In this document: positions 25,394 through 50,700 of the stretch, piece after piece
Layout: the number at the start of each line of letters is the position of its first letter
Position numbering within the stretch: position 1 is the first letter of the stretch
Assembly (NCBI GenBank): GCA_963782525.1
Contig: CAWAKC010000001.1
Span: 32,001 to 96,000, forward strand
From: Candidatus Bathyarchaeota archaeon
GTDB lineage: Archaea > Thermoproteota > Bathyarchaeia > Bathyarchaeales > Bathycorpusculaceae
Length of the DNA stretch: 64,000 nt
Direction: 5' to 3'
The notes under the pieces: model-generated
What the model saw: the letters and a program-made list of their open reading frames with translations, nothing else
Database searches by the model: none
Told to the model about the DNA's origin: nothing
Position numbers and translations under genes: made by a program

Positions 25394-25470
25394 GAAACCT
25401 TGACTAAGCCCAGGCAGAAAGTTTGACAAATAATCACTTAAGCAGCTTAACCTCATTATATTACAGGAAT
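25394..25470 (+). promoter_or_regulatory. Module B promoter (repeated WWGAC boxes + cacttaag TATA-like box)
   Basis: gaaaccttgactaagcccaggcagaaagtttgacaaataatcacttaagc. Confidence 0.65.
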
Positions 25471-25491
25471 GTCAAATTCCAGGTGCCTAAA

Positions 25492-26238
25492 ATGAAGCGA
25501 ATGCCTCTGGTGATGGCGCTATTGATTCTATCCATTACTGTAATTATTTGCCAAGTAGGCGAGGCAACAGCAGAAACAAACGCAAACGCATCAGCTTTGA
25601 TAAGCCATTTTAACGCAAATATTATTTATGCCAATGCCTCAGCAAACTATGTTTTTGCAGAAGTTGACGTCAACTTGACTCGAATCCCAGATCAAATTAT
25701 ACCTGTCGAAGGTGTAACAGACTTCTACAAGATTGAACTAATCTCAAACGGTAAAGTTATAGGCTCAAACATAAGAGGATGCACAATTGGTGCAGGTCTA
25801 TCCATGGATAAGATGATGGGGCTAAGTATGAGTTATGGACACATAGGCACTTCTACTATTAATGGCAACCAAACCATAAGAAAATGGGATGTCTGGTATG
25901 ACCCAATGAATCCAACTTTCGTAGAACCCCTAGCTATTCGTTTGAGCAGAGTGGGATGGGCTATTGTAAATGGCAATGATACATCCATTAATCTCAATTT
26001 AAATCAAGGAGTCCAAGAGGTTTATCTAGCGAAGAGCGATAACTCATATACCTACGGCAAACCTACCCAAAATGACACCCTGACTTCAATTACTCCCGCC
26101 CCTACCACTTCTCCATCTCCGTCACCTATAGAAACTGAATCTTTTCCTGCTACAACTGTAGCAACTTTCTCCTTAGCAATTGTGCTCGCAATAATTGCGG
26201 GTGTGCTGGTTTACTTTAGGATAAGAAAGGGAAGCTAG
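25492..26238 (+). CDS. Secreted protein with C-terminal TM and YFRIRKG tail
   Basis: Signal peptide MKRMPLVM..., ESFPAT stalk, TM, basic tail; the ORF-track start lies inside module B. Confidence 0.75.
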   Translation: MKRMPLVMALLILSITVIICQVGEATAETNANASALISHFNANIIYANASANYVFAEVDVNLTRIPDQIIPVEGVTDFYKIELISNGKVIGSNIRGCTIGAGLSMDKMMGLSMSYGHIGTSTINGNQTIRKWDVWYDPMNPTFVEPLAIRLSRVGWAIVNGNDTSINLNLNQGVQEVYLAKSDNSYTYGKPTQNDTLTSITPAPTTSPSPSPIETESFPATTVATFSLAIVLAIIAGVLVYFRIRKGS

Positions 26239-26330
26239 CAAGTAAGCCAAACCTAGTACGAGAACCCAAGTAAGCAAACCCTACTTCCTTCAGCGCACAA
26301 CATAAACGGCTCTACTTAATGCAAGAAATA

Positions 26331-26360
26331 TAAAACTTCATAAGGCAACAACAACCAATT
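26331..26360 (+). promoter_or_regulatory. Module A promoter/leader repeat
   Basis: taaaacttcataaggcaacaacaaccaat. Confidence 0.7.
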
Positions 26361-26366
26361 GATTAT

Positions 26367-27248
26367 TTGGTCTTGATGGCAATAAAGGCAAGGACATTGA
26401 TTTTAGTTGTTGTTTTATCGGCATTTGGCGCCGCAGCCCACTATGTTACCCCCCAAGATTCAGCCCCTGGCAAAAAACTAGGTAAAGGCATGATTATGGC
26501 AATCTTTGTTATCATTATGCTTTCTGCTTTGGCAGCAGCTTTCATCTTAACCAGACCATTTGATAAAATAGCGCCTGAAGCTACTCCAGGACCGACTACG
26601 GCTTCTGTTCCATATGACTTCAAAATATCCATTGACCAGCCAAGTTTCACCATACGACAAGGTTACAGCTGGGTTGTTACCCTAAGCTTAGAAAGTATCA
26701 GCCGAAACACACAAAATATCGATATGTCCACTGTCAACTTTACTGCCGACTATGACGCAAGCAAAATAAAAGCTGACTTCGGAGTGACCGACTTTCTCTA
26801 TAATGAAAATTTGGGCTCTGAAAACGGAAATGGCACGACAATACCCGCTGGATTTTCAAAGCAGCTAACAATAACCGTTCCGAAATCAACGCCAACAAAC
26901 AACTATACGGTAACTGTATCGGCTTGGGTCGGTTCGGTTAACCATAATACTTCTATTTTGGTTGGGGTTGAAAGCGCTACAGTTTCAGTTCATGGAACAG
27001 TTAGCCCTGGAAAGACGGGTTTGTTTCCAACTACAATTCGATTCCATGACTTGGTATCTGGAGAAATGTTTTCGATAGCAATCCAAGGTAACGGTTACTC
27101 TATTGCAATTCCTAATCACCGAACTTATTCGGTGGCTGCTTGGGAATTTAGAGTCCAGTGGTGGACGTGCGATAGTAATTTCTGGTTAGAAGTAACCCCT
27201 GGAAGTTCTTCATTGAACAAAGATTTTACACTTGTTGAACGCAGTTAA
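26367..27248 (+). CDS. N-terminally anchored multi-beta-sandwich protein (paralog of 38261-39418)
   Basis: Shares SVPYDFKIS, LTITVP.STPT..Y, SATVSV.GTV, YSI..PN.R.Y and KDFT with the paralog. Confidence 0.75.
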   Translation: MVLMAIKARTLILVVVLSAFGAAAHYVTPQDSAPGKKLGKGMIMAIFVIIMLSALAAAFILTRPFDKIAPEATPGPTTASVPYDFKISIDQPSFTIRQGYSWVVTLSLESISRNTQNIDMSTVNFTADYDASKIKADFGVTDFLYNENLGSENGNGTTIPAGFSKQLTITVPKSTPTNNYTVTVSAWVGSVNHNTSILVGVESATVSVHGTVSPGKTGLFPTTIRFHDLVSGEMFSIAIQGNGYSIAIPNHRTYSVAAWEFRVQWWTCDSNFWLEVTPGSSSLNKDFTLVERS

Positions 27249-27373
27249 TCGTTTAGAACGGGTGCGTACACGCCGCTCCGCAAATAAATATGGACATGGC
27301 ACACGCAAGTGATTAGGAAAATTTATAGTCTAATGAGCGAAAAATGCTCTCATTAACGTAAGAACATTGGTGC

Positions 27374-27530
27374 AAAGCTTCATAAGGCAACAGCAACCAA
27401 TAGCCGATTGTTAGATATGAAATAGTTTCTGCTTTTCCTTATGTTCTTCTGTTACCCTCTAACTTTTTGTCAGCCAGAAACCTTGACAAACCATAGACAA
27501 GAAAGCTTGACAACAAACCTTTTAGGCGCA
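27374..27530 (+). repeat. Empty cassette: module A + signal-peptide stub + module B (degenerate direct repeat of 50544-50700)
   Basis: aagcttcataaggcaacagcaaccaatagcc...ttcttctgttaccctct....ttttgtcagcca...ccttgacaaaccatagacaagaaagcttgac. Confidence 0.7.
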
Positions 27531-27541
27531 TCCCAGCACAC

Positions 27542-29389
27542 TTGGGGTGGGGTGAAACGGTGCGAAACAGGTTGAAGCATAGACCACTATGTGACGCCTC
27601 TTTGTACCTAAAAGGCGTAGCTGCAATGGCTTGTTTTATGATCGTTTTGGGGGCTTTCTATACTTTGCCTGTAAAGGCCGATGGGACTATGTTTCGTGGC
27701 GATCTCAACCGGACCGGTGTAGCTTCCGGTCCCGCGGTTTTTGCCGTTTCCTCTCTCTGGAATTTTTCGTCAGGTGATATTCGGGCCTCACCAGTCGTTG
27801 CAAACGGTATCGTATACGTTGTTTCTTTGGACAAAAACCTCTATGCTCTCAACGCAACAACCGGAGTTAAACTTTGGAATTTCAGCGACGCTTACGCGTT
27901 GTATTCAGCCCCTTCAATAGTAGAGGGAATTGTCTATTTTGGTGGGCTCAGTTGCGTCTGGGCTTTGAACGGTACAAGCGGAATGCTGATTTGGAGAGCG
28001 GCTACTATTTCGCCAAACAGTACTGTTCAATCGTCTCCCGCGGTTGTTGATGGAGTCGTTTATGTTGGTTGCTCTGATCAAAATCTTTACGCGTTGAGTG
28101 CAGATACAGGAAACAGAATTTGGGCTTTCCAATCCTCAGGTCAATTCTATTCGTCTCCAGCGGTAGTTGACGGAGTTGTCTATGCTGGTTCAAGCAAGGG
28201 GTACCTTTACGCAGTTGACGCTTATAGTGGCAGATTGCTTTGGGCCTTCCAAACTGGGGGACCTATTGATTCTTCCCCTGCAGTCGTCGATAGGATTGTT
28301 TATTTTGGCTCTTGGGATGGGAATGTGTACGCTGTCAACGTCGCTAACCATGCAAAACTGTGGAGCTACTCCACAGGCGACCAAGTCAGTTGTTCAGCAG
28401 CCGTGGCAAATGGTGTGGTCTACATTGGTTCTGAGGATAACAATTTCTATGCTTTGGATGCAATTAACGGCAGTAAACTGTGGAGTTACACTGTAGAAAA
28501 CGTAATTTACTCATCCCCAGTTGTAGTGGATGGTGTGGTGTATTTTGGCGATGGGAACGGAAACGTTCTTGCCTTGGATGCAGTCAATGGCACACAAATT
28601 TGGTGTTACACAACAGTTGGAGGCGTCTTAGCATCACCAGCCATCGTTAACGGTATTGTGTATATCGCCGCACTCCGAGGCCCGCAGCAGTACAGTACTA
28701 TCCCAACGTTATACGCTTTAGCGGCATCCTCAACTCCCGGACCGTTTAAGACCATGCATATTAGATTTCCACTACCCACTACGCAACCAACGCCAACCTG
28801 GAGCCCCAGCCCAACCGCTACGCCTCTGCAATCACCGATGCCCACCTCTCAGGCAACGTCGAAACCAACTGCTAAGCCCTCACCAACCCCAACTTCATCG
28901 ACTAATTTAACAGCAACAACAGAAAACGGAACTACGTTGTTCCTTGAACTCAGCGGAAATATAACTGAAAGTCAAGTAAGTAGAGCTACGTTGGCCGTAA
29001 ACCAATCTGCGGCAACCACAACACTCTCCTTCACTTTAAACGGGCAAAGTGGCACTGTCGGGTTTAGCAACATAACGATCCCAAAAGCGGTCGTCCTCAC
29101 AGGATCAACACCAATGATTTGGGTAGATACTCAACCTGCCCAAAATCAAGGCTTTACTCAGGATGCCCTTAATTACTACGTTTGGTACACGGCGCATTTC
29201 AGCAGCCACCAAATAGCGATAGTTTTCAGCGCAGATACTTTGCCAAGCCCAACGACGATAAATGGAAGTTTGGGGGGCCAAATTACTTGGACTCAAATAA
29301 TCTTCGGAGTCCTTGGTGCCTTGGTTATTGTATTAGTCACCGTTGGAGTGCTAATACTCGTCAACCGGGAGAGACGCAGAAACCCTTGA
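27542..29389 (+). CDS. PQQ-like beta-propeller surface protein with PT stalk, accessory C-terminal domain and TM
   Basis: MFRGDLNRTG, ~8 SSPAVVDGVVY.GS.D...YA repeats, G.SG..GF.NITIPK...VWYT.HFS.H domain, TM + RERRR. Confidence 0.88.
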   Translation: MGWGETVRNRLKHRPLCDASLYLKGVAAMACFMIVLGAFYTLPVKADGTMFRGDLNRTGVASGPAVFAVSSLWNFSSGDIRASPVVANGIVYVVSLDKNLYALNATTGVKLWNFSDAYALYSAPSIVEGIVYFGGLSCVWALNGTSGMLIWRAATISPNSTVQSSPAVVDGVVYVGCSDQNLYALSADTGNRIWAFQSSGQFYSSPAVVDGVVYAGSSKGYLYAVDAYSGRLLWAFQTGGPIDSSPAVVDRIVYFGSWDGNVYAVNVANHAKLWSYSTGDQVSCSAAVANGVVYIGSEDNNFYALDAINGSKLWSYTVENVIYSSPVVVDGVVYFGDGNGNVLALDAVNGTQIWCYTTVGGVLASPAIVNGIVYIAALRGPQQYSTIPTLYALAASSTPGPFKTMHIRFPLPTTQPTPTWSPSPTATPLQSPMPTSQATSKPTAKPSPTPTSSTNLTATTENGTTLFLELSGNITESQVSRATLAVNQSAATTTLSFTLNGQSGTVGFSNITIPKAVVLTGSTPMIWVDTQPAQNQGFTQDALNYYVWYTAHFSSHQIAIVFSADTLPSPTTINGSLGGQITWTQIIFGVLGALVIVLVTVGVLILVNRERRRNP

Positions 29390-29448
29390 GAGTTCAAAAA
29401 TTGCTTATTAGATTGGCATACCATGGCTGATTTGTCTCGACCAATCAG

Positions 29449-29487
29449 GTAAAACTTCTTAAAGTAACAGCAACCAATAGCCGATTG
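29449..29487 (+). promoter_or_regulatory. Module A repeat
   Basis: gtaaaacttcttaaagtaacagcaaccaatagccgattg. Confidence 0.65.
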
Positions 29488-29570
29488 TACATATGAAAGG
29501 TGTAGTGTTCTCTTAGGGGAACGGGCTGTTCTTTGGGGAGAGCTAAAAGGTTCTTCAACATTAACTTGTT

Positions 29571-30284
29571 ATGATAGAAGTGTCAAGAACAAAGGTAACC
29601 CAAATTATGGCATTAGTTCTCTTACTATTCAGCAATAGTTTGGGTTATGCCAGCTGCAACATTGTGTTTACAGCGAAAGGGCCTGATTTGGTTGCTACAA
29701 CTTCCCCATACATCATCTCTCCAGCCAATCAGACCTACAATTCAGGATTACTCAATCTGAACGTCAGTTTCAAGGGGTTTATTTGGGGAAATATGTACTT
29801 CTCGATGAACTATAGCTTAGATGGAAAAGACAACCAAACAATTCCTTTAACACCACACTATTTTGGGAGCTTTTTGCAAGGAGACCCCGATAAGAACTAT
29901 TGGGATGGTTCGATAGAATTGCCAGCCCTCCCTAGTGGTTCGCATTGTTTAACGGTCTACTTGGAGGTGATCTGGGAGACCTTTGACTCTTCGGGGTCCC
30001 ACAACCAAACCGAGATTGATCGCCAAACTGTAGATTTCGCAGTCTCTTCGCCAATTCAGTTGCTAATGCCACAGCAACCCACAAACACTTCCTCAACTCT
30101 CCAGCGTCAAATATCCATAAGTCCAACCCCGCTTACAGCAACACAAACACCTCCAAACAATGAACCAACCGCATTAGTACTCTATCCACAAACCCAGATT
30201 GCAGTTGCTTCTGTAGTTTTGATTGTAGCAATTGCTTCTGTCACATGGGTTTACATCAAGAGGCGCAAGTCTAAAACATCTTAG
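29571..30284 (+). CDS. Array surface protein, Ig-like domain + TM (KRRKSKT tail)
   Basis: IISPANQTY...LNVSF...YSLDG...LP.GSH.LTVY. Confidence 0.8.
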   Translation: MIEVSRTKVTQIMALVLLLFSNSLGYASCNIVFTAKGPDLVATTSPYIISPANQTYNSGLLNLNVSFKGFIWGNMYFSMNYSLDGKDNQTIPLTPHYFGSFLQGDPDKNYWDGSIELPALPSGSHCLTVYLEVIWETFDSSGSHNQTEIDRQTVDFAVSSPIQLLMPQQPTNTSSTLQRQISISPTPLTATQTPPNNEPTALVLYPQTQIAVASVVLIVAIASVTWVYIKRRKSKTS

Positions 30285-30292
30285 CAAAAAAC

Positions 30293-30330
30293 GTAAAACT
30301 TCATAAAGCAACAGCAACCAATAGCCATCG
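30293..30330 (+). promoter_or_regulatory. Module A repeat
   Basis: gtaaaacttcataaagcaacagcaaccaatagcc, ending a few nt before ATG 30338. Confidence 0.7.
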
Positions 30331-30337: not shown

Positions 30338-31042
30338 ATGCAAAAAAGAGTCTTGCTCGCTGCTTCCATTCTCGTATTATCTCTGCTTGTTATGCTACAA
30401 GGCTTGCTAGTCTCGGATGCTAATCCTCTCCCTTGGTTTGCTGACCCTCAAATGAGTGTGTCTATCCAGTTTCCAACGAATGGAACCATTACTTCTCTTC
30501 CTGTTTGGGTGAATTTTACTTCTCTGGGTGATGGACAGTTTACTGTCTCTGATGACACTACAAAAGAGTGGGTTAGATCATTCTTCTACGTCATAGACGA
30601 GCAGAATATGAAGACGTCGGGTTTGAGGTTTGAAACAAAAAACACCACAATCACAGGTCCAAGCGCACCAAAATATTGCAGCAACTTTAGTGGGCAAGCG
30701 TGCATAACGAACTTGGAAGATGGCCCGCATACAATAACGGTCTATTATGGTGCAGTCAATAGAATTAGTTATGTTGGTACTCCACAAGAAAGCATATACT
30801 ATAGTCCATACTGGCAAGCTACTGCTCAATTCTATGTTGATAGTAACCTTGCCTCAGGTCTCACTATTACTCCAAGCCCAACCCCAACCCAAAGTATACC
30901 TACAATTAACACAGGTGACACATTGCCTGTTGAGTTGAATCCCTCAATAGTCTATATCACACTGGCCATTGTGACTGCAATAATAGCGGTTGCTTCAATC
31001 ACATTGGTTTACTTCAAGAAACACAAACGCAATGCAGTTTAG
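30338..31042 (+). CDS. Array ANP-type Ig-like surface protein
   Basis: Signal...DANP, core shared with 32581, PTINTGDTLPVELNP stalk, TM, YFKK. Confidence 0.82.
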   Translation: MQKRVLLAASILVLSLLVMLQGLLVSDANPLPWFADPQMSVSIQFPTNGTITSLPVWVNFTSLGDGQFTVSDDTTKEWVRSFFYVIDEQNMKTSGLRFETKNTTITGPSAPKYCSNFSGQACITNLEDGPHTITVYYGAVNRISYVGTPQESIYYSPYWQATAQFYVDSNLASGLTITPSPTPTQSIPTINTGDTLPVELNPSIVYITLAIVTAIIAVASITLVYFKKHKRNAV

Positions 31043-31145: not shown

Positions 31146-31373
31146 ATGGAAGACCCGATGGATAGGATACTAATAGACCCAGAAGTTCTCTCTGGCAAAC
31201 CAGTCATTAAAGGAACCCGCATTCCAGTCTATCTTATCCTCGACCTTTTTGCAAGTGGCATGACACAAAAAGAAATCCTAAATCAGTATCCCACACTGAA
31301 AAAAGAAGACATCAAAGCTGCACTTGTTTATGCTTCAAAATGCCTGGAGAATGAAGAAACAATAGTGATCTAA
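31146..31373 (+). CDS. DUF433-family antitoxin
   Basis: IDPEVLSGKPVIKGTRIPV..IL...ASG....IL.QYP.L..EDI.AAL.YA. Confidence 0.92.
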   Translation: MEDPMDRILIDPEVLSGKPVIKGTRIPVYLILDLFASGMTQKEILNQYPTLKKEDIKAALVYASKCLENEETIVI

Positions 31374-31389
31374 TAAGAGCTGCGCATTC

Positions 31390-31749
31390 TTGGTTAAAAT
31401 GATAGTTGATGAAAATATCCCAAGGGATGTGCAGAAATGGTTATCCAAGAAAGGTTTCGAGACAGTAAACATTTCGAAAATTCTTCCTAGAAGTGCCAAA
31501 GACAAAATCATAGTGGATTACGCTATAAAAAACAAATTGCCAATCATCACCCTCGACAAAGGTTTTGCTCAAATCTACCGTACTTTTCAAAAAGGAACCT
31601 CGCTTACAATCTTGATAGTGAAGGCCAACCCTCCAACACCAATTAATATTATTGAAACTTTAAATTTAGCTCAAAACAAAATGAATCTGAAGGAAATACA
31701 AAACAAACTTGTCATTATTACAAAAAGGAAGATACGAATAATCTCTTGA
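31390..31749 (+). CDS. PIN-like toxin (DUF5615/VapC45-like)
   Basis: IVDENIP, D..I..YA, IITLDKGF; downstream of DUF433. Confidence 0.88.
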   Translation: MVKMIVDENIPRDVQKWLSKKGFETVNISKILPRSAKDKIIVDYAIKNKLPIITLDKGFAQIYRTFQKGTSLTILIVKANPPTPINIIETLNLAQNKMNLKEIQNKLVIITKRKIRIIS

Positions 31750-31827
31750 ATTGTTTCTATTAAATAACCAAACTTTTTTGTGCTGCAATTTTCGAATAGA
31801 GCTTACGGGGTTAGTCAAGAAACGGGC

Positions 31828-31900
31828 AAACCTTAGACAAGAAAGCTTGACAAAAAATCTCTTAAGCAAACTCGTTCGCATAATATATCAGGAATGGTAT
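31828..31900 (+). promoter_or_regulatory. Module B promoter
   Basis: aaaccttagacaagaaagcttgacaaaaaatctcttaagcaaactc...ggtatATG; an inverted box ggttagtcaag lies at 31809. Confidence 0.7.
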
Positions 31901-32584
31901 ATGCCAAAGAAACTCTTGGCAACAACAATCATCCTAACAATAGCAATTACAACGTTATCAGCAATACCTACGTCAAAGGAAAATTTTATTCCAGTTCCAG
32001 GATTGTATATTCAATCACCATACGATTCAAAATATTCTGGCTCTCTAAGCAAATCTATTCCACTTTGGATTGAAGCAGGTCTTCCAGCAGGTGCGCCAGC
32101 AGTTGTTTCCATTAGCTACAGTCTTGATGGACGTGCAAACGTTACCTTTCCTAAGTTGACACATGAGACGTATTATCCTACCCCTTGCAATGTTCCGATG
32201 AATCCTGACATTTATTTTAATAGGGATGTAACGTTGGATAATTTAACTGATGGAACCCATACGGTAAAAGCTTATTCTCTTGATGCCAATGGTAATGAAA
32301 TGTCGGCTTCAGTAGTTTTTACAGTTAGCTCATATTTTGATCCAGACATTTATACTAAGGGAATTTATCCATCACCAACCCCAATAGTTAAGGCGGAACC
32401 AACTAAGATTACAGAAACCCCAACCACAAACCCATTAACTGCTTCTCCAACTCCAGATCAAGGCATAGATTCTAATTATTGGGTAAATCCAATTGCTCTT
32501 ATTGCAATTGCTTCTGTGATTGTGATTATAGCTGTAACTTCAATCTCCTTGGTTTACTTTAGGAGAAGGAAGGGGAAGCCATGA
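31901..32584 (+). CDS. Array Ig-like surface protein, MPKKLLA leader class
   Basis: ENFIP, ISYSLDG, L.DGTHTVKAY..D, TM, YFRRRKGKP. Confidence 0.82.
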   Translation: MPKKLLATTIILTIAITTLSAIPTSKENFIPVPGLYIQSPYDSKYSGSLSKSIPLWIEAGLPAGAPAVVSISYSLDGRANVTFPKLTHETYYPTPCNVPMNPDIYFNRDVTLDNLTDGTHTVKAYSLDANGNEMSASVVFTVSSYFDPDIYTKGIYPSPTPIVKAEPTKITETPTTNPLTASPTPDQGIDSNYWVNPIALIAIASVIVIIAVTSISLVYFRRRKGKP

Positions 32585-33261
32585 AGAGAAGATATGCTGC
32601 ATTTGTTGCAATCTTTGTTGTCTCAATATTGACTGGGATACAAGCAGTGGAGGATGTGAATGCTAATCCAGTTCCTCCTCCTTGGATGAATGCAAAACTC
32701 TCGGTTACTATTGAAAGCCCAGCAAACGGCTCAATCCAAAGTCGGTCATTTCTGGTTAGGTTTCATGCCGATGGCTCTCAATTTTCACTCACAAATAGTA
32801 GCATTGGAGGTTATGGTGGAGATTTCTTCTATATTTTAGATAGTCAACAATGGAGCGATATGCGTTATTCAGGAGCAAAAATATGGGATACCAAAATTGA
32901 CGATAACCATAATTTTACCGGACAAGTTTACCTGAGTAATATTGCTGCGGGAAGCCATTCCATAACCGTCTATTGGGGGGTAAAAGTCAACGTTGGAATA
33001 TTAACTGATGCAGCTTGGGCTGGAACTTCACAATTTAGTGTGGACTCAAAGTTGACACCCCAACCAACAAACAACCCAACAGCAACCCCCACACAAACAC
33101 TCTATCCATCACCATTAGAAATCTCATTGCCAACGGCAAATCCGACCGTGACTTACTTGTTGACAAATTCAACGTTTCTAACTGCAATAGTTGTTGTAAT
33201 TGCAACAGTGGCAATTGCTTCAATCTCAATAGTTTACTTTAGAAGAAGAGGGAAGCCATGA
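32581..33261 (+). CDS. Array ANP-type Ig-like surface protein, MKRRYA leader class
   Basis: NANP, IESPANG, GSHSITVY, TM, YFRRRGKP; ATGA-coupled. Confidence 0.82.
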   Translation: MKRRYAAFVAIFVVSILTGIQAVEDVNANPVPPPWMNAKLSVTIESPANGSIQSRSFLVRFHADGSQFSLTNSSIGGYGGDFFYILDSQQWSDMRYSGAKIWDTKIDDNHNFTGQVYLSNIAAGSHSITVYWGVKVNVGILTDAAWAGTSQFSVDSKLTPQPTNNPTATPTQTLYPSPLEISLPTANPTVTYLLTNSTFLTAIVVVIATVAIASISIVYFRRRGKP

Positions 33262-34318: not shown

Positions 34319-34356
34319 GTAAAACTTCATAAGGCAACAGTAACCAATAGCGATTG
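34319..34356 (+). promoter_or_regulatory. Module A repeat
   Basis: gtaaaacttcataaggcaacagtaaccaatagcgattg. Confidence 0.7.
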
Positions 34357-35001: not shown

Positions 35002-35003
35002 CC

Positions 35004-35087
35004 AAAACCTTGACTAACCCCAGACAAGAAAGTTTGACAATAAACCACTTAAGCAAACTCTATCTCTTAATAGCAATAGGAAGGTAT
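35004..35087 (+). promoter_or_regulatory. Module B promoter
   Basis: aaaaccttgactaaccccagacaagaaagtttgacaataaaccacttaagcaaactc...aggaaggtatATG. Confidence 0.72.
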
Positions 35088-38241: not shown

Positions 38242-38260
38242 CTAACGCTAATTGGTGGAT

Positions 38261-40472: not shown

Positions 40473-40475
40473 CCG

Positions 40476-42781: not shown

Positions 42782-43328
42782 ATTAATGCTAACAGCATTA
42801 TCTCTTTGTTTGTTGGTTTGTTGTTTTACTATTGTTGAAGTGGGAGATGCTAACCCCTATAGTTACCCTTCATTATGGATAGAATCACCTAAAAACACAA
42901 TTTACAATACAACAGATGTCAAAATAGCATTCCACACAGACACACCAATTAGATACCCAGAAATTGTTAAAATGTCTTACAGTCTTGATGGTACAGCCAA
43001 CACAACACTAAGCATCTCAAAGACGCAGACCTTCCAGTTTGGAAGTTTTAGCGCTAGCTCACGCATTTCATACGTAGGAACAGGACTTTTAACGGATCTC
43101 AGCAATGGCACTCATTCACTTGACGTGTATGCACTTGATTCTAAAGGCACAACAATGACCTATCCCACAGGAAGAACTTTTCAGGTAAATATTACCCCTA
43201 AAAATGAACAGCCTCTACCAATAAGCAACATAACAATCATTCTAGTGATAACTATAACTGCTGTGACAATAAGCTCAGTTTTAACCGTCACACTTCTTAA
43301 TAGAAAAATGAAGAGAGCCAACAAGTAA
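42771..43328 (+). CDS. Array ANP-type Ig-like surface protein, RLRLML leader class
   Basis: DANP, IESPKN, MSYSLDG, NGTHSLDVYALD, TM. Confidence 0.82.
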   Translation: MRLRLMLTALSLCLLVCCFTIVEVGDANPYSYPSLWIESPKNTIYNTTDVKIAFHTDTPIRYPEIVKMSYSLDGTANTTLSISKTQTFQFGSFSASSRISYVGTGLLTDLSNGTHSLDVYALDSKGTTMTYPTGRTFQVNITPKNEQPLPISNITIILVITITAVTISSVLTVTLLNRKMKRANK

Positions 43329-43369
43329 GCAAAGTTCTCTCTAATTTGGTAGTGTTACTAATCATCGAG

Positions 43370-43449
43370 AAGCCTTGCTTATCTTAGAAAAGCAGGTTTA
43401 ACAAAAAGCACTTAAGCAAACCTATTCTGATAGCATAATAGGGAATTAG
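43370..43449 (+). promoter_or_regulatory. Module B promoter (degenerate)
   Basis: ccttgcttatcttagaaaagcaggtttaacaaaaagcacttaagcaaac before MPKKLLA. Confidence 0.55.
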
Positions 43450-44319
43450 ATGCCAAAGAAACTCTTGGCAACAACAATCATCCTTTTGATAGCAATTACT
43501 ATGTTACCCTTAACTCCTGTCGCACGAGGAAATTTTATTCCTCCTACAAGTCCTGAAATTATAATTCTTGAACCAAAACGTCAGAACGTTATAATCTACG
43601 AAGACACGCCTATTCCCATAATAGTAACTATAACGGAGCCAGAAAACGTTTCACACTACCACCAAATCACTAACATCACCTATAGCATAGACGGAAAACC
43701 AGAAGTGGAAATTACCAACATAACAAAGAAGACCAATCAGGCATATTTTAGCGGAAAAACAGCCACTGATTATCTTGCATACGCTACCATAGACACCGTT
43801 GAAAGAGGCAGCCATATCTTATCGGTTTATGCCCTCGATGATGCTGGAAACCGTTTGCCAACAAAAACAGGATTTGCATACCAAAGCATTGACAAATATC
43901 CAAACGTCACCATTTTTTCTCCCTTAAATACGACCTATTTTAACACAACCAAATTGACCCTAAATTACACGGCTGATAACTTCATAATGGCATCTTATTC
44001 TTTGGATGGTGTAGACAATGTTTTTTATGACGCCCAAAATGGAACTGTGCACTCACGCTCAGGACTAAACAACGGAGAGCATACAATTCTGCTACGTGTA
44101 TCTACTGAATTTGGATGGTTCTCACAAACAATCAAATTTGCGGTATATGGAGCAGATTTCCAGGCACATTATCAGAATCTACCACTGATACCTTCTAGAG
44201 AAACTTCCGATAGAAGCCCAGTCCCGATTGTTTTGATTATCGTGGTTGCGGTTGTGGTTTTTTCAATTGGGGGTTTGCTGGTTTTCCTTAGGAGGAAGGG
44301 AATTAATGAGGCAAAGTAG
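43450..44319 (+). CDS. Array two-Ig-domain surface protein, MPKKLLA leader class
   Basis: GNFIP, YSIDG and YSLDG domains, TM, RRKG. Confidence 0.82.
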   Translation: MPKKLLATTIILLIAITMLPLTPVARGNFIPPTSPEIIILEPKRQNVIIYEDTPIPIIVTITEPENVSHYHQITNITYSIDGKPEVEITNITKKTNQAYFSGKTATDYLAYATIDTVERGSHILSVYALDDAGNRLPTKTGFAYQSIDKYPNVTIFSPLNTTYFNTTKLTLNYTADNFIMASYSLDGVDNVFYDAQNGTVHSRSGLNNGEHTILLRVSTEFGWFSQTIKFAVYGADFQAHYQNLPLIPSRETSDRSPVPIVLIIVVAVVVFSIGGLLVFLRRKGINEAK

Positions 44320-45223
44320 TGCTCTTTTTGCCGCGGTATTTCTGGTCTCAATGTTGATTGGGATACAAGCAGTTGAGGTAGTAGATGCTAATCCTTACAT
44401 GTTCCTGCAATTTACAAGAATAAAGATTCATTCGCCTCAATCCCATGTCTATGTTTGTCCTAACGTAGACTTATCTTTTGACTATTACACAGAAACTAAT
44501 TCGCCCAAAGTTGATTCTTTCTCATATAGCTTAGATGGCAAAGCTAACTCTACATTGGTTAGTAGCAAATCAAGTATTCTTCATTTTATCAAGTATTCTG
44601 TCTTTAAGACTTTAGAAAACTTATCCAACGATAATCATAAGCTAATAGTTTATGCTCATTTTTCTAACAATACAGTATTTTCAATTTTGGACCAAAAAAT
44701 AGTTGTAGACACAGCATACATTCAACCCACTCCCTTTATGATTTCTCCTTTAAACCAAACAACGTATAATGCTAGAGAAATAGATGTAGCTTATACAATA
44801 GATGCAAAAATATTCTATTATAGGTATGACTTAGATAACAGATATAACAAATATTATGATTCTTCTAAATCAATAAGTGTTAATGATAGTGCAACCTTAA
44901 CTAACGTAGGTCTTGTGGGCAACACAACGTTAATTAACCTCTCTGACGGTTCCCACAAGCTAAAATTAATTTTGACAATACAGCCCTATGAACGCTATTA
45001 CTCTGAAACATGTTTTGTAACAGTCTACTTTAATGTGGATTCAGATGAGCCAAGTCCAAGTCTAACCCCAAATACTACTGCCTTGATGCCCACTGTAAAT
45101 AGTGGTCCATATGTAGATTTGGCTATGAGTTATTTTCCATATATCGTTGGATTGGTTGCTGTTGTAATTGTACTCATTGTGGGCTTATTGGTTTACTTTA
45201 AGAGGAGAAAGGGGAAGCCATGA
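44306..45223 (+). CDS. Array two-Ig-domain surface protein
   Basis: MRQSSALF...IGIQAVEVVDANP, FSYSLDG, LSDGSHKL, YFKRRKGKP; ATG at 44306. Confidence 0.82.
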   Translation: MRQSSALFAAVFLVSMLIGIQAVEVVDANPYMFLQFTRIKIHSPQSHVYVCPNVDLSFDYYTETNSPKVDSFSYSLDGKANSTLVSSKSSILHFIKYSVFKTLENLSNDNHKLIVYAHFSNNTVFSILDQKIVVDTAYIQPTPFMISPLNQTTYNAREIDVAYTIDAKIFYYRYDLDNRYNKYYDSSKSISVNDSATLTNVGLVGNTTLINLSDGSHKLKLILTIQPYERYYSETCFVTVYFNVDSDEPSPSLTPNTTALMPTVNSGPYVDLAMSYFPYIVGLVAVVIVLIVGLLVYFKRRKGKP

Positions 45224-45972
45224 ACCGAAAATATGCTGAATTTGCTTCAGTGTTATTGGTCTTTTTTGTTATTAGTGAATTTGGCAGCTTTTTTGCTGCT
45301 GCAAACTGGGCGCCCATCTATGCTAACGTAGAAATCTCACCTCAGAGCGTTGGGGCAACACCGCCAACTATCACCTTTCTATCTCCCGAAAATGACCGAA
45401 CATATGGAAGAAACCTAACGTTGCACTGCAACATAAGCGTTGGAACCGTTTCCCACCAAAACATGTCTTGCGGCATAGAAAACCTCTACTATCAAGCAGA
45501 CTGGGAAACTCAACCGACAAAGGTCATACGGCTGCAGTTAAGCAAGGACGGTTATGAGTGGGATACGATAATAACAGGCACCGTAAACTCTGACTTTACC
45601 GAATACTCAAACAACCTAACAGCCCCCACTGAAGGAAAACATAGCATAACCTTCTGGGCAGCTGAAAAAGGAAGCTACCAAGTGGACATTGGAAAACAAT
45701 TCCCCGCAGAGAGAATAAACGTCTACACCTTCCATATCAACAGTTCCCAAACAGTAGCTTTCACCGTGAGCAACTCTCCACCAGTTGAGCAACCAACCCC
45801 AACCCAAAACTCAAACGCTACTGAGTCCGATTATTTGCTGAATCAAACAAATCTTATTTTGATAGCTATTGTGATTGTAATATTGGCTGTTGCTTCAATC
45901 TCGTTGGTTTACTTTAAGAGAAGAAAGGGCAAGCTGACAAGTAAGCCAGCCATAGTAAGAGAACCCAAGTAA
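45220..45972 (+). CDS. Array Ig-like surface protein (core of 39576, tail of 37392)
   Basis: AANW, EISP..V.A.PP, EGKHSIT.WA.E.GSY, IVREPK tail. Confidence 0.82.
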   Translation: MNRKYAEFASVLLVFFVISEFGSFFAAANWAPIYANVEISPQSVGATPPTITFLSPENDRTYGRNLTLHCNISVGTVSHQNMSCGIENLYYQADWETQPTKVIRLQLSKDGYEWDTIITGTVNSDFTEYSNNLTAPTEGKHSITFWAAEKGSYQVDIGKQFPAERINVYTFHINSSQTVAFTVSNSPPVEQPTPTQNSNATESDYLLNQTNLILIAIVIVILAVASISLVYFKRRKGKLTSKPAIVREPK

Positions 45973-46054
45973 GCAAACCCTACTTCTATTAGCCCATAAC
46001 ACTAACGGCTCCGCTTAACGTAAGGAATGTAAAACTTCATAAGGCAACAGCAAC
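45841..46054 (+). repeat. Exact 214-bp direct repeat, copy 2; ends inside module A
   Basis: Identical to 38028-38241; sequence after ...gcaacagcaac is unrelated to module A. Confidence 0.92.
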
Positions 46055-46222
46055 TGAACTTGATTTGATTCTTGCTATAACTACGAATTATTTAACGCGT
46101 TGTTGAAATTGCTATCGCTAAAGGCAGGAAAAAAACGCTCCAGCATTGCTCAAAATTGTTTCTATGTGCAAACAAGCAATCTGTCGACATGTTCAAATAT
46201 GGTGAGTTATCGTGTGTTTCAT

Positions 46223-47542
46223 ATGAGAAAGGGCAACGCAGCAGTAATCATTTCTGTAATTATGATGAGCGTAACATTTTTTGCAGAAGAAACTTTGGTA
46301 ACGGCTAACCTGAATCCACCAGCAATCGAATGGAGCAAGAGCTATTCCTACGGCACGTACAGTGGAATCTACGCTATGATTCCAACAGCGGACGGCGGCT
46401 TCGCTTTGGGTGGCACTGTAACTCAGTTGGGTACGCCTGGAGCGACTACCAGCGATATGTGGCTGCTCAAGGTTAACTCCCAAGGCGATAAGCTGTGGGA
46501 ACAAGGCTTAAGCAGTGCATATCTCAATTTGGGGGGAATCGTCTCCCTTGTTCAAGCCGATGATGGTGGATACGTCTTAGCAGGCGAATCAGTGTTCGGC
46601 AGCTCGCATCTTGTCAAGACCGATTCGTCAGGTAATGTAGTTTGGACTCGGGCCTACGATAACATAGCTTTACAGACCGTCATAAAATGTCGAGATAATG
46701 GATATGCAGTCGCTGGCACAATTAACAATGGCAACTCAGACTTCTGGCTGGCTAAAATTACAGAATCCGGCGCAATGCAATGGAATCAAACTTACGGAGG
46801 CATAAACATTGACTTGTGCAACTCACTAATTCAAACTAGTGACGGTGGCTTTGCGCTTGCAGGTTCAACCTCTAGCTTTGGTTTAGGAAATGCAGACATG
46901 TGGCTAATCAAAACTGATAGTTACGGTTCAATGGTTTGGAACCAAACATATGGCACTCAAGAGAACGATGCTGCAGATTGTGTGATTCAAACCACTGATA
47001 ATAATTACGTGTTATCAGGATACACGATGCACACCTCAGGAAACAATTTTGAATCTTTTGCATTGTCTATGATTAAAACTGATTCCTCTGGTAAGGTTCT
47101 TTGGAGCAAAACCTACAGCCAACACATCGATACCACGTATTTATCTGTAATCAAGACGAAGGATAGCGGGTATGCTCTAGCAAGCGATTTTGGGATTATA
47201 AAAACCGATTCGTCGGGGGCAATTCAGTGGAGCCTACCCTATGGAGGGACGTATTCCCTAATTCAAATCGACAACGCCTACATCCTCGCTGGCACCACTT
47301 CTGGTTCGTCAGCAGCAAGCGGCTGGATAGCGAGCACAACTGAAACACAGACTATAGTTTCTCCGAGCACTCAGCCTGCCACATCCTCAAGTCCAACCTC
47401 TGCAGTGACACCGACAACACCTATAACTGGGCTATTATTCTATCAAGAAACCATGATAGCGGTTGCTTCTATGATCATAATAATAGCCGTTGCTTTTGTC
47501 ATATTCGTTTATTACAAGAGGCGTAAGTCTAATGCCGCTTAG
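46223..47542 (+). CDS. QTSDGG-repeat beta-propeller surface protein with array-type TM tail
   Basis: TANLNP, repeated D.WL.K.D..G...WNQTYG, YYKRRKSNAA; ATG 46223 preferred. Confidence 0.85.
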   Translation: MRKGNAAVIISVIMMSVTFFAEETLVTANLNPPAIEWSKSYSYGTYSGIYAMIPTADGGFALGGTVTQLGTPGATTSDMWLLKVNSQGDKLWEQGLSSAYLNLGGIVSLVQADDGGYVLAGESVFGSSHLVKTDSSGNVVWTRAYDNIALQTVIKCRDNGYAVAGTINNGNSDFWLAKITESGAMQWNQTYGGINIDLCNSLIQTSDGGFALAGSTSSFGLGNADMWLIKTDSYGSMVWNQTYGTQENDAADCVIQTTDNNYVLSGYTMHTSGNNFESFALSMIKTDSSGKVLWSKTYSQHIDTTYLSVIKTKDSGYALASDFGIIKTDSSGAIQWSLPYGGTYSLIQIDNAYILAGTTSGSSAASGWIASTTETQTIVSPSTQPATSSSPTSAVTPTTPITGLLFYQETMIAVASMIIIIAVAFVIFVYYKRRKSNAA

Positions 47543-47551: not shown

Positions 47552-47590
47552 GTAAAACTTCATAAGGCAACAGCAACCAATAGCGATTGG
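47552..47590 (+). promoter_or_regulatory. Module A repeat
   Basis: gtaaaacttcataaggcaacagcaaccaatagcgattgg. Confidence 0.72.
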
Positions 47591-47597
47591 TGGATAT

Positions 47598-48455
47598 ATG
47601 CGCAGTTTATTGTCGCTGCTGACAATTCTGGTCCTACTCGGGGCAACTGCAGGCATGTTTTTACCCGTTAATGCTAACCCGAATCTAATTTTAGATCCAG
47701 TTCCAAGTGCGCCGGCTCCAGCGGGCGTCCAAATCATCTTTGACATGGAGGCCCCAAAAGAAAACGCAACATACGTCAACGGAACAGTTAACGTGGTCTT
47801 CAACGTAACAGTTGACGGACCAAGTCAAATTAACGGACAACCGCTCAACAAGCACCTTATGTTGACGACCTACCAGGGAGATTGGATGCAAAAAAGTGAA
47901 TGGGCGCCTTCGAGGATTTTCCAAACCTTACAATTCTACCCATATAACTTTAGCATCTTTGGCATACCATTTGGAGAGCATACTCTAAACTTCACGACCC
48001 ATGCACAAGGCAATTTTGTCTTAGCAAATTACTCTGGTCGCGTTTATAATCTGGAAAAAACCATCTCTTGCAAGTTCTTTGTTCTCGCAAATCCCATTAT
48101 TGAATTCTCTTTACCTCAAAACGCCAACTCCACAACCTCGTCTTTTCCCTTGAACTTCACCATTGACCACCCTGTTACAGAAATGTCTTACCGGTTAGAT
48201 GGGCTAGAATCCGTTCCAATCACCGGAAACACCACGTTAACCGACCTACATTATGGTCAACATAATGTTACTGTTTACGCAACCGACGAGTTTGGCTATA
48301 CTGGCAAATCAAACACTCTCCTCTTCAACGTTAACTCTCCAGAGGTTGGAGAATTTTCATTGGTGCCCTCGGTGGTTCCTTTCGCGATTGCCGCCATCGC
48401 GTTAACTGTTGCCGGCTTGTCGGTTTATTTTAAGAGAAGAAGAGGGAAGGTATGA
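47598..48455 (+). CDS. Array two-domain Ig-like surface protein (first domain shared with 33258)
   Basis: NANP, PKENATY, TYQGDWM; second domain SYRLDG...GNTTL...G.HNVTVYATD. Confidence 0.83.
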   Translation: MRSLLSLLTILVLLGATAGMFLPVNANPNLILDPVPSAPAPAGVQIIFDMEAPKENATYVNGTVNVVFNVTVDGPSQINGQPLNKHLMLTTYQGDWMQKSEWAPSRIFQTLQFYPYNFSIFGIPFGEHTLNFTTHAQGNFVLANYSGRVYNLEKTISCKFFVLANPIIEFSLPQNANSTTSSFPLNFTIDHPVTEMSYRLDGLESVPITGNTTLTDLHYGQHNVTVYATDEFGYTGKSNTLLFNVNSPEVGEFSLVPSVVPFAIAAIALTVAGLSVYFKRRRGKV

Positions 48456-49057
48456 AGAGTAGGATACCTCTTTTTACCGTGATACTTGCAATCTCATTAT
48501 TGGTTGGAGAATTAAACATTGAAGTAACAAATGCTAACTTTTATCCAATCCCTTCAATATACATCATAGGTTACAATCCAACCTATCCAAATGGCAACAA
48601 CTATACCTTCACTGTGGAAGCGCATATTTCTATGGATGCCCCAGGAATTGTTTCCATCAGCTACAGCTTAGATGATAAAAAGAACATCACCTCTTCTAAC
48701 TTAAAATACACCACTTGGATGAAAGATAATGGACCAAACAATCACCAAATTTACTCCATAACAGAATACCTCTATAACTTAGAGATTGGAAACCACACAA
48801 TCAATGCTTATGCAACGGATTCAACGGGAAAAGTACAATCAACTAATCATCAGTTTACAGTGGACAACTCAAATATCTCTAATTCAATTACTCCAACTAT
48901 AAGCCAAAACCCCCCAACAATTAACACCGGTCCCAAAACGCAAGTTGGGTTAAATCATTCTATAGTCTATATCACACTGGCCCTTGTGATTGTGATAGTT
49001 GCTGTTGCGTCAATCGCATTGGTTTACTTTAAGAGGCATGAGTGTAGAATGCCTTAG
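48452..49057 (+). CDS. Array Ig-like surface protein
   Basis: NANF, ISYSLD, GNHTINAYATD, PTINTGP, TM. Confidence 0.8.
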   Translation: MKSRIPLFTVILAISLLVGELNIEVTNANFYPIPSIYIIGYNPTYPNGNNYTFTVEAHISMDAPGIVSISYSLDDKKNITSSNLKYTTWMKDNGPNNHQIYSITEYLYNLEIGNHTINAYATDSTGKVQSTNHQFTVDNSNISNSITPTISQNPPTINTGPKTQVGLNHSIVYITLALVIVIVAVASIALVYFKRHECRMP

Positions 49058-49101
49058 AAACTATGGTTTGACGAAAAGCACAAAAACCAACCAATAAATA
49101 A

Positions 49102-50541
49102 ATGATCAAGATGACTGACAAATCATTATCGGCATCGCATGCGATATCTGGACAGACAATCCAAGAGGTAGCCGCATTATTTCTTGCTGTTCTTGTAATC
49201 TCGGCAATATTCGCTAATAGCGGATTGGCGAATGCACAGTCAACACAATGGAGCGAGTCATTCTCCTATAGCTATGGCAGCGGAAACTCAATAAACCGAT
49301 GTACCGATGGAAACTATGTGATCGCCGGAGAAAGCAACAGCCAATTTCTTATGGCAAAGGTCACACCATCTGGTGACTTGCTATGGTGGAAGGCCTACCA
49401 GAACGGTAAAGCCAATTGTGTCATAGGCACTTCTGATGGCGGGTATGTCCTAGTAGGGAGTGGCGATGTAAACTTCATCAAGACTGATTCGACAGGCAAC
49501 CTGCAGTGGACTAAAGCGTTTAACAAAAATGGCGTTTCCTTTTAAATCGAAAGCGCCATACAAACATTGGACGACGGATACCTTCTTGCCGGCTACACAC
49601 CCGCAGGAAATACACCCAGTTGGGATTGGACCTTAAAAATTGATTCAAACGGAAATAGCCTTTGGAATAAAACCTATGGAACTCGGTCTGGGCAATCATT
49701 AGCAACAGCTGTTGTTGAGGAATCGGGCGGATACGTTCTTGCTGCCAATAGCCAACTCTACAAATTGGATAACGAAGGGGCAGTACTATGATACCAATCA
49801 ACCGCACTTGCGAGTTCACTTGTAAAGACTGCCGACGAAGGGTACCTCTTAGCTTCTTCTACTGGTTCTATATTGGTTAAATTTGGGTCTGATGGCAACA
49901 TTTCATGGAGTAAAGACTTAGCTTACCCTCCTAACCCCAAGAAGATGCCCACAAGTTCTCCGACTTTTCTCCATTCAGCGATTCAGGCTCAAGACGGTGG
50001 CTATCTAGCTGTTGGAATGGCATTTCCTCTCTATGATGGGGTAGCTTGGATGGTTAAGACTGATTCAGCGGGTAACCAAGTATGGAATTGCGCATCTGAG
50101 GATTATACTGGGCACAACTGCAACATCAACGCAATAGTTGAATCGGCTCCCGGCGAGTACATATTAGCAGGTTCAATCTCCAGCGTAACAAACGGCGCCT
50201 ACAGGGAGGTTTGGATTGCCAAAGTCTCAAACACCATTCCATTGCCATCCAGCATCCCCTCGCCCAACAGCCCTGCAACTACACCGAAACCGGACCAAAC
50301 GACAACGCCGATGCCAACTAGCGGTTTGTCTCCAATACCAAATGTTAATCCAAGCTCCATAGAAAAGACACCCACAAACCCTAAAACAACACCTTCACCA
50401 ACCTCAAATCAAACCGCCGTATCAAATTTCTCATCTAACTCAATAGCACAAGTTGCAATAGCTTCCTTCGCTATTCTAATAGCGATTATTTCGACGTTAT
50501 TGATCTACAGACAGCTTAAGTTAAAGACCACTAAGAAATAA
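49102..50541 (+). pseudogene. QTSDGG-repeat beta-propeller surface protein with two in-frame stops (TAA 49543, TGA 49789)
   Basis: The three ORF pieces are in one frame and read through as GVSF*IESAIQTLDDGY and GAVL*YQSTALASSLVKTADEGY. Confidence 0.82.
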
Positions 50542-50543
50542 GC

Positions 50544-50700
50544 AAATCATCATAAGGCGACAACACGCAGCTAAGCCAATTGAACTAAGAAAGCTGACTC
50601 CGCACGCTTTCTTCTGTTACCCTCTGTCTTTTTGTCAGCCAAAAACTTGACTAACCTTAGACAAGACAGTTTTATAAAAAACCACTTAAACAAACATAAC
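50544..50700 (+). repeat. Empty cassette (degenerate A + signal stub + B) at the right end of the array
   Basis: cataaggcgacaac...ttcttctgttaccctctgtctttttgtcagccaaaaacttgactaaccttagacaag...accacttaaacaaac; no gene follows. Confidence 0.68.

Follow-up and report, generated by a model that had tools for sequence, protein, structure and literature searches.

What keeps the genes of a long tandem array of surface-protein genes alike at their ends and divergent in their middles: dedicated switching machinery, old duplication under constraint, or ordinary recombination? This question is posed by an array at positions 25423-50541 of a 64,000-nucleotide stretch of DNA from Candidatus Bathyarchaeota archaeon (assembly GCA_963782525.1, contig CAWAKC010000001.1, positions 32,001 to 96,000; hereafter the window). 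The genome, labelled G000, is represented by a 2.87-Mb assembly of 12 contigs with 43% G+C and 95.8% completeness. After gene starts had been picked by eye out of the list of open reading frames (ORFs), the array comprised 27 gene models, all on the + strand, together with a single small ORF in the opposite orientation (33905-34246, -). Twenty of the models (g04, g05, g07-g09, g11-g15, g17-g24, g26, and g27), coding for proteins of 185-323 amino acids, belong to a single family, in agreement with the original prediction of about 20 co-oriented genes with a common build. We consider it likely that they form a fast-turnover family of surface glycoproteins, whose conserved leader, anchor, and promoter modules are the sites at which ordinary homologous recombination shuffles the genes. 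Close lineages differ in their repertoires, and on this view no rapid programmed on/off switch is at work.

The region 25001-51100 was compared with itself by blastn, and of the bases covered by the 111 self-matches only 1.3% fell into the gene cores, which occupy 54% of the region, a bias well beyond what chance would give. The predicted pattern of conserved ends and divergent cores was thereby upheld, but the ends had been described too strongly as near-identical: the median identity of the self-matches was 83.1% (range 68.9-97.7%), with at least 90% reached in 14 and at least 95% in four of the 111. Many of the self-matches spanned gene junctions, running from the end of the stalk through the membrane helix, the tail, and the stop codon into the leader of the next gene. 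The longest near-identical block, of 271 bp and 96% identity, links positions 37971-38241 at the 3' end of g15 with positions 45784-46054 at the 3' end of g24 (both on the + strand). Starting at the stalk, it covers the helix, the tail, the stop codon, and the spacer between the genes, and it reaches into the type-1 element that follows; type 1 is one of two kinds of conserved upstream element in the array. The cores of g15 and g24 come from different subgroups and share 42% nucleotide identity, whereas their anchors are 100% identical, and we regard this block as the clearest recent event in the array.

The nearest neighbours of leader, core, and anchor were discordant in most of the 20 genes. 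The leaders of g08 and g09 share 90% nucleotide identity and their cores 32%; the anchors of g12 and g19 share 89% and their cores 37%. Mantel tests gave r = 0.08 (p = 0.13) for leader and core, r = -0.05 (p = 0.75) for anchor and core, and r = 0.07 (p = 0.29) for leader and anchor. At aligned identical residues the same codon was found with a frequency of 0.544 in leaders, 0.538 in anchors, and 0.400 in cores, with approximately 0.35-0.37 expected from codon usage. The discordant neighbours, the uncorrelated matrices, and the codon retention are explained by exchange of the end segments, and constraint at the protein level alone is insufficient. The same end modules recurred at 73-95% identity in smaller clusters of the family elsewhere in the genome, namely on contig C1 at 378-381 kb, on C7 at 115 and 261 kb, and on C12, C10, and C9.

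Comparison with relatives of the same genus (G002, G023, and G010, the sister species) and with metagenome contigs revealed cores joined to other ends and standing among other genes. In G010, the syntenic locus (L014 and L015) has conserved flanks: the 14 kb lying upstream are 95% identical, and the aligned segments show 99.2% (window 16109-21451), 94.6% (21583-30262, including g01-g04), and 95.7% identity (48973-54346). The array itself is shorter and reordered there. It consists of g04', the spacer that follows g21 in the genome under study, g23' (96.2% identical), g09' (86%), g18'-g21' (96.8%), 3.1 kb of unrelated DNA, and a chimeric gene in which a g05-like start (84.7%) and a g27-like end (96%) enclose the g15 core (88.6%). 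The g23 core, located before g09', stands behind a g11-like leader. Twelve of the 20 cores had no counterpart in the 40-kb syntenic stretch of G010 when a minimum of 84% identity across a minimum of 60 bp was required, and all 14 alignment ends inside the array lay within 100 nucleotides of a gene start or stop. Four array genes were present at the syntenic site of G023, and a gene of G002 (9023-9715 of stretch L011) joins an MPKKLLA leader to an N-terminus resembling the g13-type cores. When metagenomes were scanned for a longer locus of this kind, the only contig recovered was one of 1.9 kb (L027), with the g13 core (88.5% nucleotide identity) behind a different leader and among different neighbours. 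Contigs from two soil metagenomes showed g23 with a leader and a following junction of the G010 type, which is evidence against a purely artefactual assembly in G010; the public runs contained at most 0.18 of the sampled words each and were searched as assembled contigs only. Together with the discordant ends and the synonymous retention described above, these rearrangements support the predicted recombination-shuffled repertoire.

A profile of the family matched at E ≤ 1e-5 in 61 of the 81 sampled genomes of the genus. The genome under study gave the most matches (31), followed by genomes with 26, 18, 16, 15, and 11, and the others with 0-6, the matches per genome not being equal to exact copy numbers. 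When g13 was used as a query against 16 genomes belonging to other families within the order, none gave a match.

The tempo of the process can be judged from the same comparison. Since the g18-g21 orthologues are about 97% identical and the paralogous ends are mostly well below 90%, homogenisation appears to be occasional and shuffling episodic rather than rapid. Synonymous divergence (dS) between the two genomes ranged along the window from 0 to 1.0, and the entire neighbourhood has the appearance of a patchwork of recombined segments. The ratio of nonsynonymous to synonymous divergence (dN/dS) was 0.19-1.13 in array genes, estimated from few substitutions, and 0.12 for three non-surface genes nearby (a primase, a histidine kinase, and a VTT-domain gene); the higher values in the array are at most suggestive of weaker constraint. 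Two observations outside the array concern the same pair of genomes. A beta-helix surface gene at 21639-22601 (+), situated between genes 99-100% identical, shows only 75.7% identity to its G010 counterpart (dS 0.53), as though the allele of this surface gene had been replaced. Three genes at 17877-19268 and 24240-24827 are 100% identical in both genomes while genes 30 kb away are 77-90% identical, which points to recent exchange between the two species-level lineages.

The family proteins share one build. The N-terminal leader resembles a signal peptide and is followed by one beta domain or two, which are divergent, and then by a Pro/Thr-rich stretch, which a few members (g14 and g17 among them) lack or have only in short form; the C-terminus consists of a hydrophobic helix with a basic tail. 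The leaders are basic and hydrophobic and end in V.A-N-P; the tails have the general form YF(K/R)RRK, as in YFRRRKGKP. The first domains of all 20 members aligned over 116 consensus positions with an invariant D and an invariant H, giving the consensus ANP.P..P.I.I.SP.N..Y...I.S..Y.LD...L..L..G.H.L.V, so that the core pattern I.SP.N.TY...YSLDG...L..G.H.L.V of the original prediction proved real. Pairwise identity over whole proteins was 19-47%. The end classes that had been proposed were also recovered in the gene models: on the 5' side MPKKLLA (g07, g12, g18, and g22), MKRRYA..IGIQAVEVVD (g08, g09, g13, g15, g20, and g23), and RLRLMLTALSL (g14 and g21), and on the 3' side GKP/GKS/GKT with a 4-nucleotide ATGA overlap, K(S/P)KTA, and IVREPK (g15 and g24). 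A type IV pilin-like leader was considered and rejected, as the sole Pilin_N match (g12) had an E-value of 0.52 and the C-terminal anchor better suits a Sec leader.

Searches with NCBIfam models (10 proteins) gave no match for the family, and the best Pfam scores were 23.0 bits for Big_7 (g11; gathering cut-off 24.1) and 21.7 bits for Big_13 (g17; cut-off 27). The fold was approached through AlphaFold2 models, which were confident. The model of the g07 core, built from 20 aligned paralogues, had a predicted local distance difference test score (pLDDT) of 88.5 and a predicted template modelling score of 0.80; full-length g13, with 42 aligned sequences, reached a pLDDT of 78.5. All 11 Foldseek matches of the g07 core at E ≤ 1e-3 were immunoglobulin (Ig)-like C-terminal domains of sulfite oxidases, and SoxY, the Ig domains of cytokine receptors, and CARDB came next. 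The g13 structure matched generic Ig/FN3 domains only (top Z 8.0, root-mean-square deviation 3.1, 102 residues, a range rated as common), and the full-length g13 model gave no Foldseek match at E ≤ 1e-3, the leader and anchor helices having probably hurt the search. In the ESM Atlas the best score for g13 was 0.80, under the lead level of 0.9. The best structural matches of both modelled cores were all Ig/FN3/E-set sandwiches; hence, the Ig fold proposed earlier is supported by two predicted structures. A search for g13 homologues found 80, among them P0003, 80% identical and located on a 75.6-kb contig.

With a profile of the 20 cores, 1.84 billion representatives were searched, and 7603 proteins matched at E ≤ 1e-3. 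Giant multi-repeat proteins headed the matches, and six of the eight scanned passed the Pfam Big_13 cut-off. These matches, the Big_13 passes, and the models indicate that the cores are divergent members of a widespread Ig-like class. Big_13 (PF19077) and Big_7 (PF17957), of the E-set clan, represent the same fold class and match the cores directly only weakly; proteins found with these domains are mostly giant and multi-repeat, whereas the array members are single-domain in scale, membrane-anchored, and below the Pfam cut-off where scanned. The distinctive trait of the family is thus its small single-pass architecture rather than its fold. N-glycosylation sequons occur in the ectodomains at 3.05 per 100 amino acids versus 0.70 in ORFs of at least 250 amino acids genome-wide, a density that fits predicted glycoproteins.

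Altogether, we propose a lineage-expanded family of putative type-I membrane proteins kept in a flexible tandem array. A Sec-type leader would export each protein and, judging from the sequences and models, would be cut probably after V-x-A, directly before the invariant N-P. One or two sequon-rich Ig-like domains (E-set, Big_13/Big_7-like) would be displayed on the Pro/Thr stalk, and the C-terminal helix with its short, presumably cytoplasmic basic tail would hold the protein in the membrane. Two constant modules, the upstream element with the leader and the stalk end with the helix and tail, recur every 0.6-1 kb in direct orientation, in stretches of up to about 330 bp with 69-98% identity. 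General homologous recombination could use them for unequal crossing-over and gene conversion, by which genes would be duplicated, deleted, and reordered and cores would gain new leaders and new anchors. The sequences themselves show the mosaic outcome, whereas the enzyme responsible is our inference. The selective driver would probably be recognition, at the cell surface, of viruses, partner cells, or polymer substrates; in the original prediction the proteins were candidate adhesins or receptor decoys.

The conserved upstream elements precede the transcription units; 16 of them are spread over the array, before at least 13 genes, and they would act as promoter and ribosome-binding site. The type-1 core AAACTTCATAAGGCAACAGCAACC has nine copies in the genome at up to three mismatches, all nine inside the array. 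Type-1 elements lie (all on the + strand) before g02 (26333-26356), upstream of g04 (29452-29475), and before g05 (30296-30319), g11 (34322-34345), g17 (39535-39558), and g26 (47555-47578), and an orphan copy lies at 27375-27398. The orphan is followed by an ORF of two codons (stretch 27375-27420) and the element at 29452 by one of seven codons (stretch 29452-29498); these two are probably scars of deleted family genes. The type-2 element has seven aligned copies, likewise on the + strand: before g01 at the array start (25391-25472), before g03 (27444-27527), before the four MPKKLLA-class genes g07 (31827-31925), g12 (35000-35112), g18 (40472-40582), and g22 (43383-43485), and a degenerate copy at 50609-50708 that closes the array with no gene after it. 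Nine gene junctions overlap by 4 nucleotides (ATGA), an arrangement that presumably couples translation.

The tandem arrangement with constant ends around variable cores raised the possibility of programmed antigenic or phase variation, in which one or a few copies are expressed and swapped at high frequency by dedicated sequences or enzymes. Such is the case in the Mycoplasma vsp/vlp and Neisseria pilE/pilS clusters, where constant ends around variable cores are combined with silent cassettes, phase-variable promoters, or invertases. The 271-bp block also suggests that a conversion or duplication took place recently at least once. The remaining features of the locus make this explanation very improbable. 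No silent or truncated cassettes were found, all 20 family genes having their own start, leader, core, and anchor, and the 16 upstream elements are conserved along the array. Inverted repeats in the array were limited to two weak pairs (72-76% complementary), and tracts of homopolymer or simple repeats were not detected; the 14 tandem-repeat rows were all short and low scoring, and none lay in a type-1 or type-2 element. Tyrosine recombinases (PF00589) gave no match in the window and eight elsewhere in the genome, the nearest on the same contig at C1:2818-3339, and neither a serine recombinase (PF00239) nor a reverse transcriptase (PF00078) was matched in the genome at its 95.8% completeness. 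Homogenisation is moreover rare, as judged from the 96.8% identity of the g18-g21 block to G010 against paralogous ends mostly well below 90%. The likeness to vsp/vlp and pilE/pilS drawn in the original prediction was therefore not supported. Two other dedicated systems were also set aside: a diversity-generating retroelement, given the missing PF00078 match and the absence of near-identical repeats within cores among the blastn self-matches, and a shufflon or inverton, given no tyrosine recombinase in the window and no serine recombinase in the genome. At the opposite extreme, the genes could be old tandem duplicates that never recombined, with drifting cores and with ends kept by the constraint of export and anchoring on the protein. 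Signal peptides and membrane anchors are indeed constrained, and a helix with a basic tail is widespread in this genome (72 ORFs). We nevertheless give this explanation hardly any credence: synonymous codons are retained more at the ends than in the cores, the similarities of leaders, cores, and anchors are uncorrelated, the unrelated g15 and g24 cores are followed by a common block that continues through the stop codon and spacer, and orthologous cores bear different leaders or tails in G010 and L027. None of the three findings named beforehand as contrary to a shuffled repertoire (uniform identity along whole genes, conserved gene order and content, no common fold of the cores) was made.

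Two further proposals are compatible with recombination and concern the proteins themselves. The C-terminal helix and basic tail could be an archaeosortase-like sorting signal, leading to cleavage and lipid attachment. The genome has two genes of the exosortase/archaeosortase family (PF09721, above the cut-off, with 112.2 and 51.3 bits) on C9 and C7, the helix and the Arg/Lys cluster stand at the extreme C-terminus, and five members have a PTINTG..LPVELNP stretch before the helix. Yet no pre-helix signature is common to the 20 members, the NCBIfam models of C-terminal sorting signals gave no match at E ≤ 1 for seven proteins with this anchor, and both enzyme genes are away from the array, so we find a sorting role unlikely. 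One archaeosortase-family gene (C9:4835-6747) adjoins an ORF ending in LPEYTLG, a hydrophobic helix, and YKRK, possibly a cognate sorting signal of a type unlike the array tails. The products of one coupled unit could alternatively be subunits of a heteromeric surface complex, the array offering alternative complexes. All four units have a gene of the MPKKLLA class in first place and one of the MKRR class behind it, and the nine overlapping junctions are consistent with such a partnership; in contrast, gene number and order vary between units and between species. The association, predicted from gene order, thus seems improbable, and a complex prediction for the g18 and g19 ectodomains (score 0.12, with the mark at 0.34) weighs neither for nor against it.

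Several points weigh against recombinational shuffling of surface glycoproteins as we propose it. What is said of the leaders, their cleavage, the topology, the glycosylation, and the promoters is prediction from sequence, and the Pfam gathering cut-off was passed by none of the 13 family proteins scanned out of 20. The genome and its relatives were assembled from metagenomes, and frameshifts or truncations (the g01 tail; g18', g04', and g21' of G010) may be consensus errors; repeats invite misassembly, and the soil metagenome contigs, being short, might have been joined falsely at 31-mers that they share. Constraints on translation start or coupling, instead of recombination, could account for some of the nucleotide conservation at the ends. 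The relatives compared are other species, so the shuffling was seen between species and not within one population, and the dN/dS of the array genes does not show positive selection.

The gene models lie on the + strand unless stated. The array opens with g01 (25489-26238), outside the YSLDG type, which has a leader, an ectodomain, a Pro/Thr/Ser stalk, a transmembrane helix, and a YFRIRKGS tail; it is 96% identical to its G010 orthologue and 89% to a paralogue on C9. At 26207-26281, an 85% match to the 3' blocks of g15 and g24, which are of the IVREPK type, continues beyond its stop codon, and the G010 orthologue has a longer tail ending in KGKLASKPNLVPEPK in place of RKGS. Because of this post-stop ghost and the longer G010 tail, the tail of g01 looks truncated, possibly by an assembly error. 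Genes from outside the family are interspersed throughout. They include g02 (26367-27248) and g16 (38252-39418), N-terminally anchored 'module A' proteins with 35% amino acid identity to each other, and g03 (27542-29389), a PQQ-like beta-propeller (Beta-prop_ACSF4 208 bits, PQQ_2 152.6 bits) with a Pro/Thr stalk, an extra domain, a transmembrane helix, and a basic tail. A DUF433 and DUF5615 (PIN-like) gene pair, likely a toxin-antitoxin module, is inserted at 31146-31749 between g05 and g07, with no counterpart seen in the G010 array; the ORF on the - strand at 33905-34246 encodes a small zinc-ribbon membrane protein with a weak DZR match. Farther on, g25 (46100-47542) has beta-propeller-like repeats (SBBP-type match with E 1.9e-7, far below the cut-off), a Pro/Thr stalk, a transmembrane helix, and a YYKRRKSNAA tail. 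A broken propeller-like gene of the g25 kind (49102-50541; two ORFs, 49102-49545 and 49873-50541) ends in a transmembrane helix and a basic tail and is fragmented in G010 too.

Among the family members, g04 (29571-30284, with a KSKTS tail) and g05 (30338-31042) are of the Ig type. A coupled unit is opened by g07 (31901-32584), with the MPKKLLA leader, one Ig-like domain, and a GKP tail, and continues with g08 (32581-33261), which has an MKRRYA leader and a 4-nucleotide overlap at each side, and g09 (33258-33899), also with an MKRRYA leader. The Ig-type g11 (34363-35001), with the best Pfam match of the family, is followed by g12 (35088-36059; MPKKLLA leader, two Ig-like domains, GKS tail), g13 (36056-36817; MKKKYP leader and a larger single beta-sandwich core), g14 (36814-37395; RLRLMLTALSL leader), and g15 (37392-38159; g13-type core and IVREPK tail), the core of which was found in G010 with a different leader and tail. 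The two-domain g17 (39576-40472) ends in an RSKTV tail. The coupled four-gene unit g18-g19-g20-g21 (40558-41403, 41400-42104, 42101-42781, and 42771-43328) is contained in the block 40438-43341, the one 96.8% identical in G010. The g22-g23-g24 unit (43450-44319, 44306-45223, and 45220-45972) and the coupled pair g26-g27 (47598-48455 and 48452-49057) complete the family.

The surroundings of the array are rich in predicted surface proteins, among them phosphate-binding proteins, PQQ-like propellers, and beta-helix proteins, many of them with the C-terminal succession of Pro/Thr stalk, membrane helix, and basic tail. By a regular expression for a hydrophobic helix followed by a basic tail, 22 of the 72 ORFs with this ending in the genome lie inside the array, and on the sequences this is a general ending of predicted surface proteins in this genome. 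Directly after the array, at 51453-53942 (-) with small ORFs up to 54100, lies a gene for an 829-amino-acid protein with D5_N and DUF5906 domains, a primase-helicase of the sort found in viruses and mobile elements. The gene is present in G010 at 95.8% identity and absent from the listed ORFs of the syntenic G023 locus; no integrase was seen near it, and it may be a remnant of an integrated element. The idea, prompted by this gene, that the array is mobile-element cargo was rejected, since G023 has array genes at the site and no primase-helicase among its listed ORFs. Elsewhere in the window, a stretch of about 60-80 nucleotides at 11962-12042 is repeated on many G010 and G023 contigs with 78-93% identity, perhaps as a short repeat scattered through genomes of the genus. 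A full archaeal small-subunit ribosomal RNA (rRNA) gene occupies 62006-63497 (-). Its 3' neighbours are protein-coding ORFs, and a large-subunit rRNA was not among the Rfam matches in the window, which suggests that the rRNA genes are unlinked.

The kind of process seen here is already known, and the array is a family-level example of it, unusual in scale and in its clean modular build. In the bab/hop paralogues of Helicobacter pylori the 5' and 3' parts are similar and the middles divergent. Here, too, conserved ends and divergent middles, discordant kinship of ends and cores, and chimeras with altered gene order between relatives were found. According to PMC3444412, recombination of babA and babB mediates antigenic variation, and exchange between copies of the paralogous surface genes yields chimeras that differ between strains. 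The H. pylori system differs in comprising a few dispersed bacterial loci for beta-barrel outer-membrane adhesins with known host ligands, whereas the array has 20 tandem archaeal genes for single-pass Ig-like proteins and its common module spans the gene junction and the promoter. Flexible islands, such as the cell-wall island of Haloquadratum walsbyi, are described in PMC4535781 and PMC4033161 as replacement islands for cell-surface genes shaped by homologous recombination, with virus pressure as the proposed driver. They have conserved flanks, a fixed site, and different sets of surface glycoproteins in close relatives; the array likewise occupies a fixed site with conserved flanks, and its gene content varies among close relatives. 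The islands, however, bring together envelope and glycan-synthesis genes that are unrelated to one another, while here one family with modular ends dominates and is reshuffled internally.

The closest archaeal parallels are recombination-varied Ig-domain surface proteins: the VARTIG module of Thermococcales, described by Makarova and co-workers, and the Methanosarcinales PKD/Ig multi-gene loci, with mosaic Ig proteins and C-terminal domains homogenised by recombination (PMC8416519). VARTIG centres on one protein of at least 1000 amino acids with a hypervariable C-terminal Ig domain and variable genes downstream, and its authors report no comparably variable Ig domains in archaea beyond the Thermococcales. 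The array proteins, of 185-323 amino acids, are variable over the whole ectodomain and constant in leader and anchor, and thus do not fall under the definition of VARTIG. From vsp/vlp and pilE/pilS the array differs in that silent cassettes, invertible elements, simple-repeat switches, and a site-specific recombinase at the locus were not found. For Bathyarchaeia, PMC11697101 mentions gene-family expansions and Ig-like domains on PQQ proteins. A search of the full-text literature, supplementary tables lying outside it, found no description of this family in Bathyarchaeota, nor was any characterisation of their cell surface found in full-text literature. To our knowledge, that surface appears not to have been characterised.

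A bolder proposal, which we hold to be rather doubtful, is a cassette-type recognition repertoire belonging to an abundant, uncultured lineage of archaea, in which the Ig-like ectodomains are swapped as units between constant modules, within genomes and between lineages. If true, clones would possess specific receptor combinations for self/non-self discrimination, partner choice, or virus escape, and a polymorphic Ig-based recognition system in Bathyarchaeota would be added to the VARTIG of Thermococcales. The array provides a concrete, testable set of candidate surface proteins of Bathyarchaeota. It is also a clean natural example of export and anchor modules serving as recombination handles, by which an archaeal surface repertoire can be expanded, shrunk, and remixed without special machinery. 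Should the repertoire turn out to govern how the cells withstand viruses, make contact with one another, or attach to plant polymers, it would contribute to an explanation of strain-level diversity in these populations, and its genes would then be markers for strain tracking.

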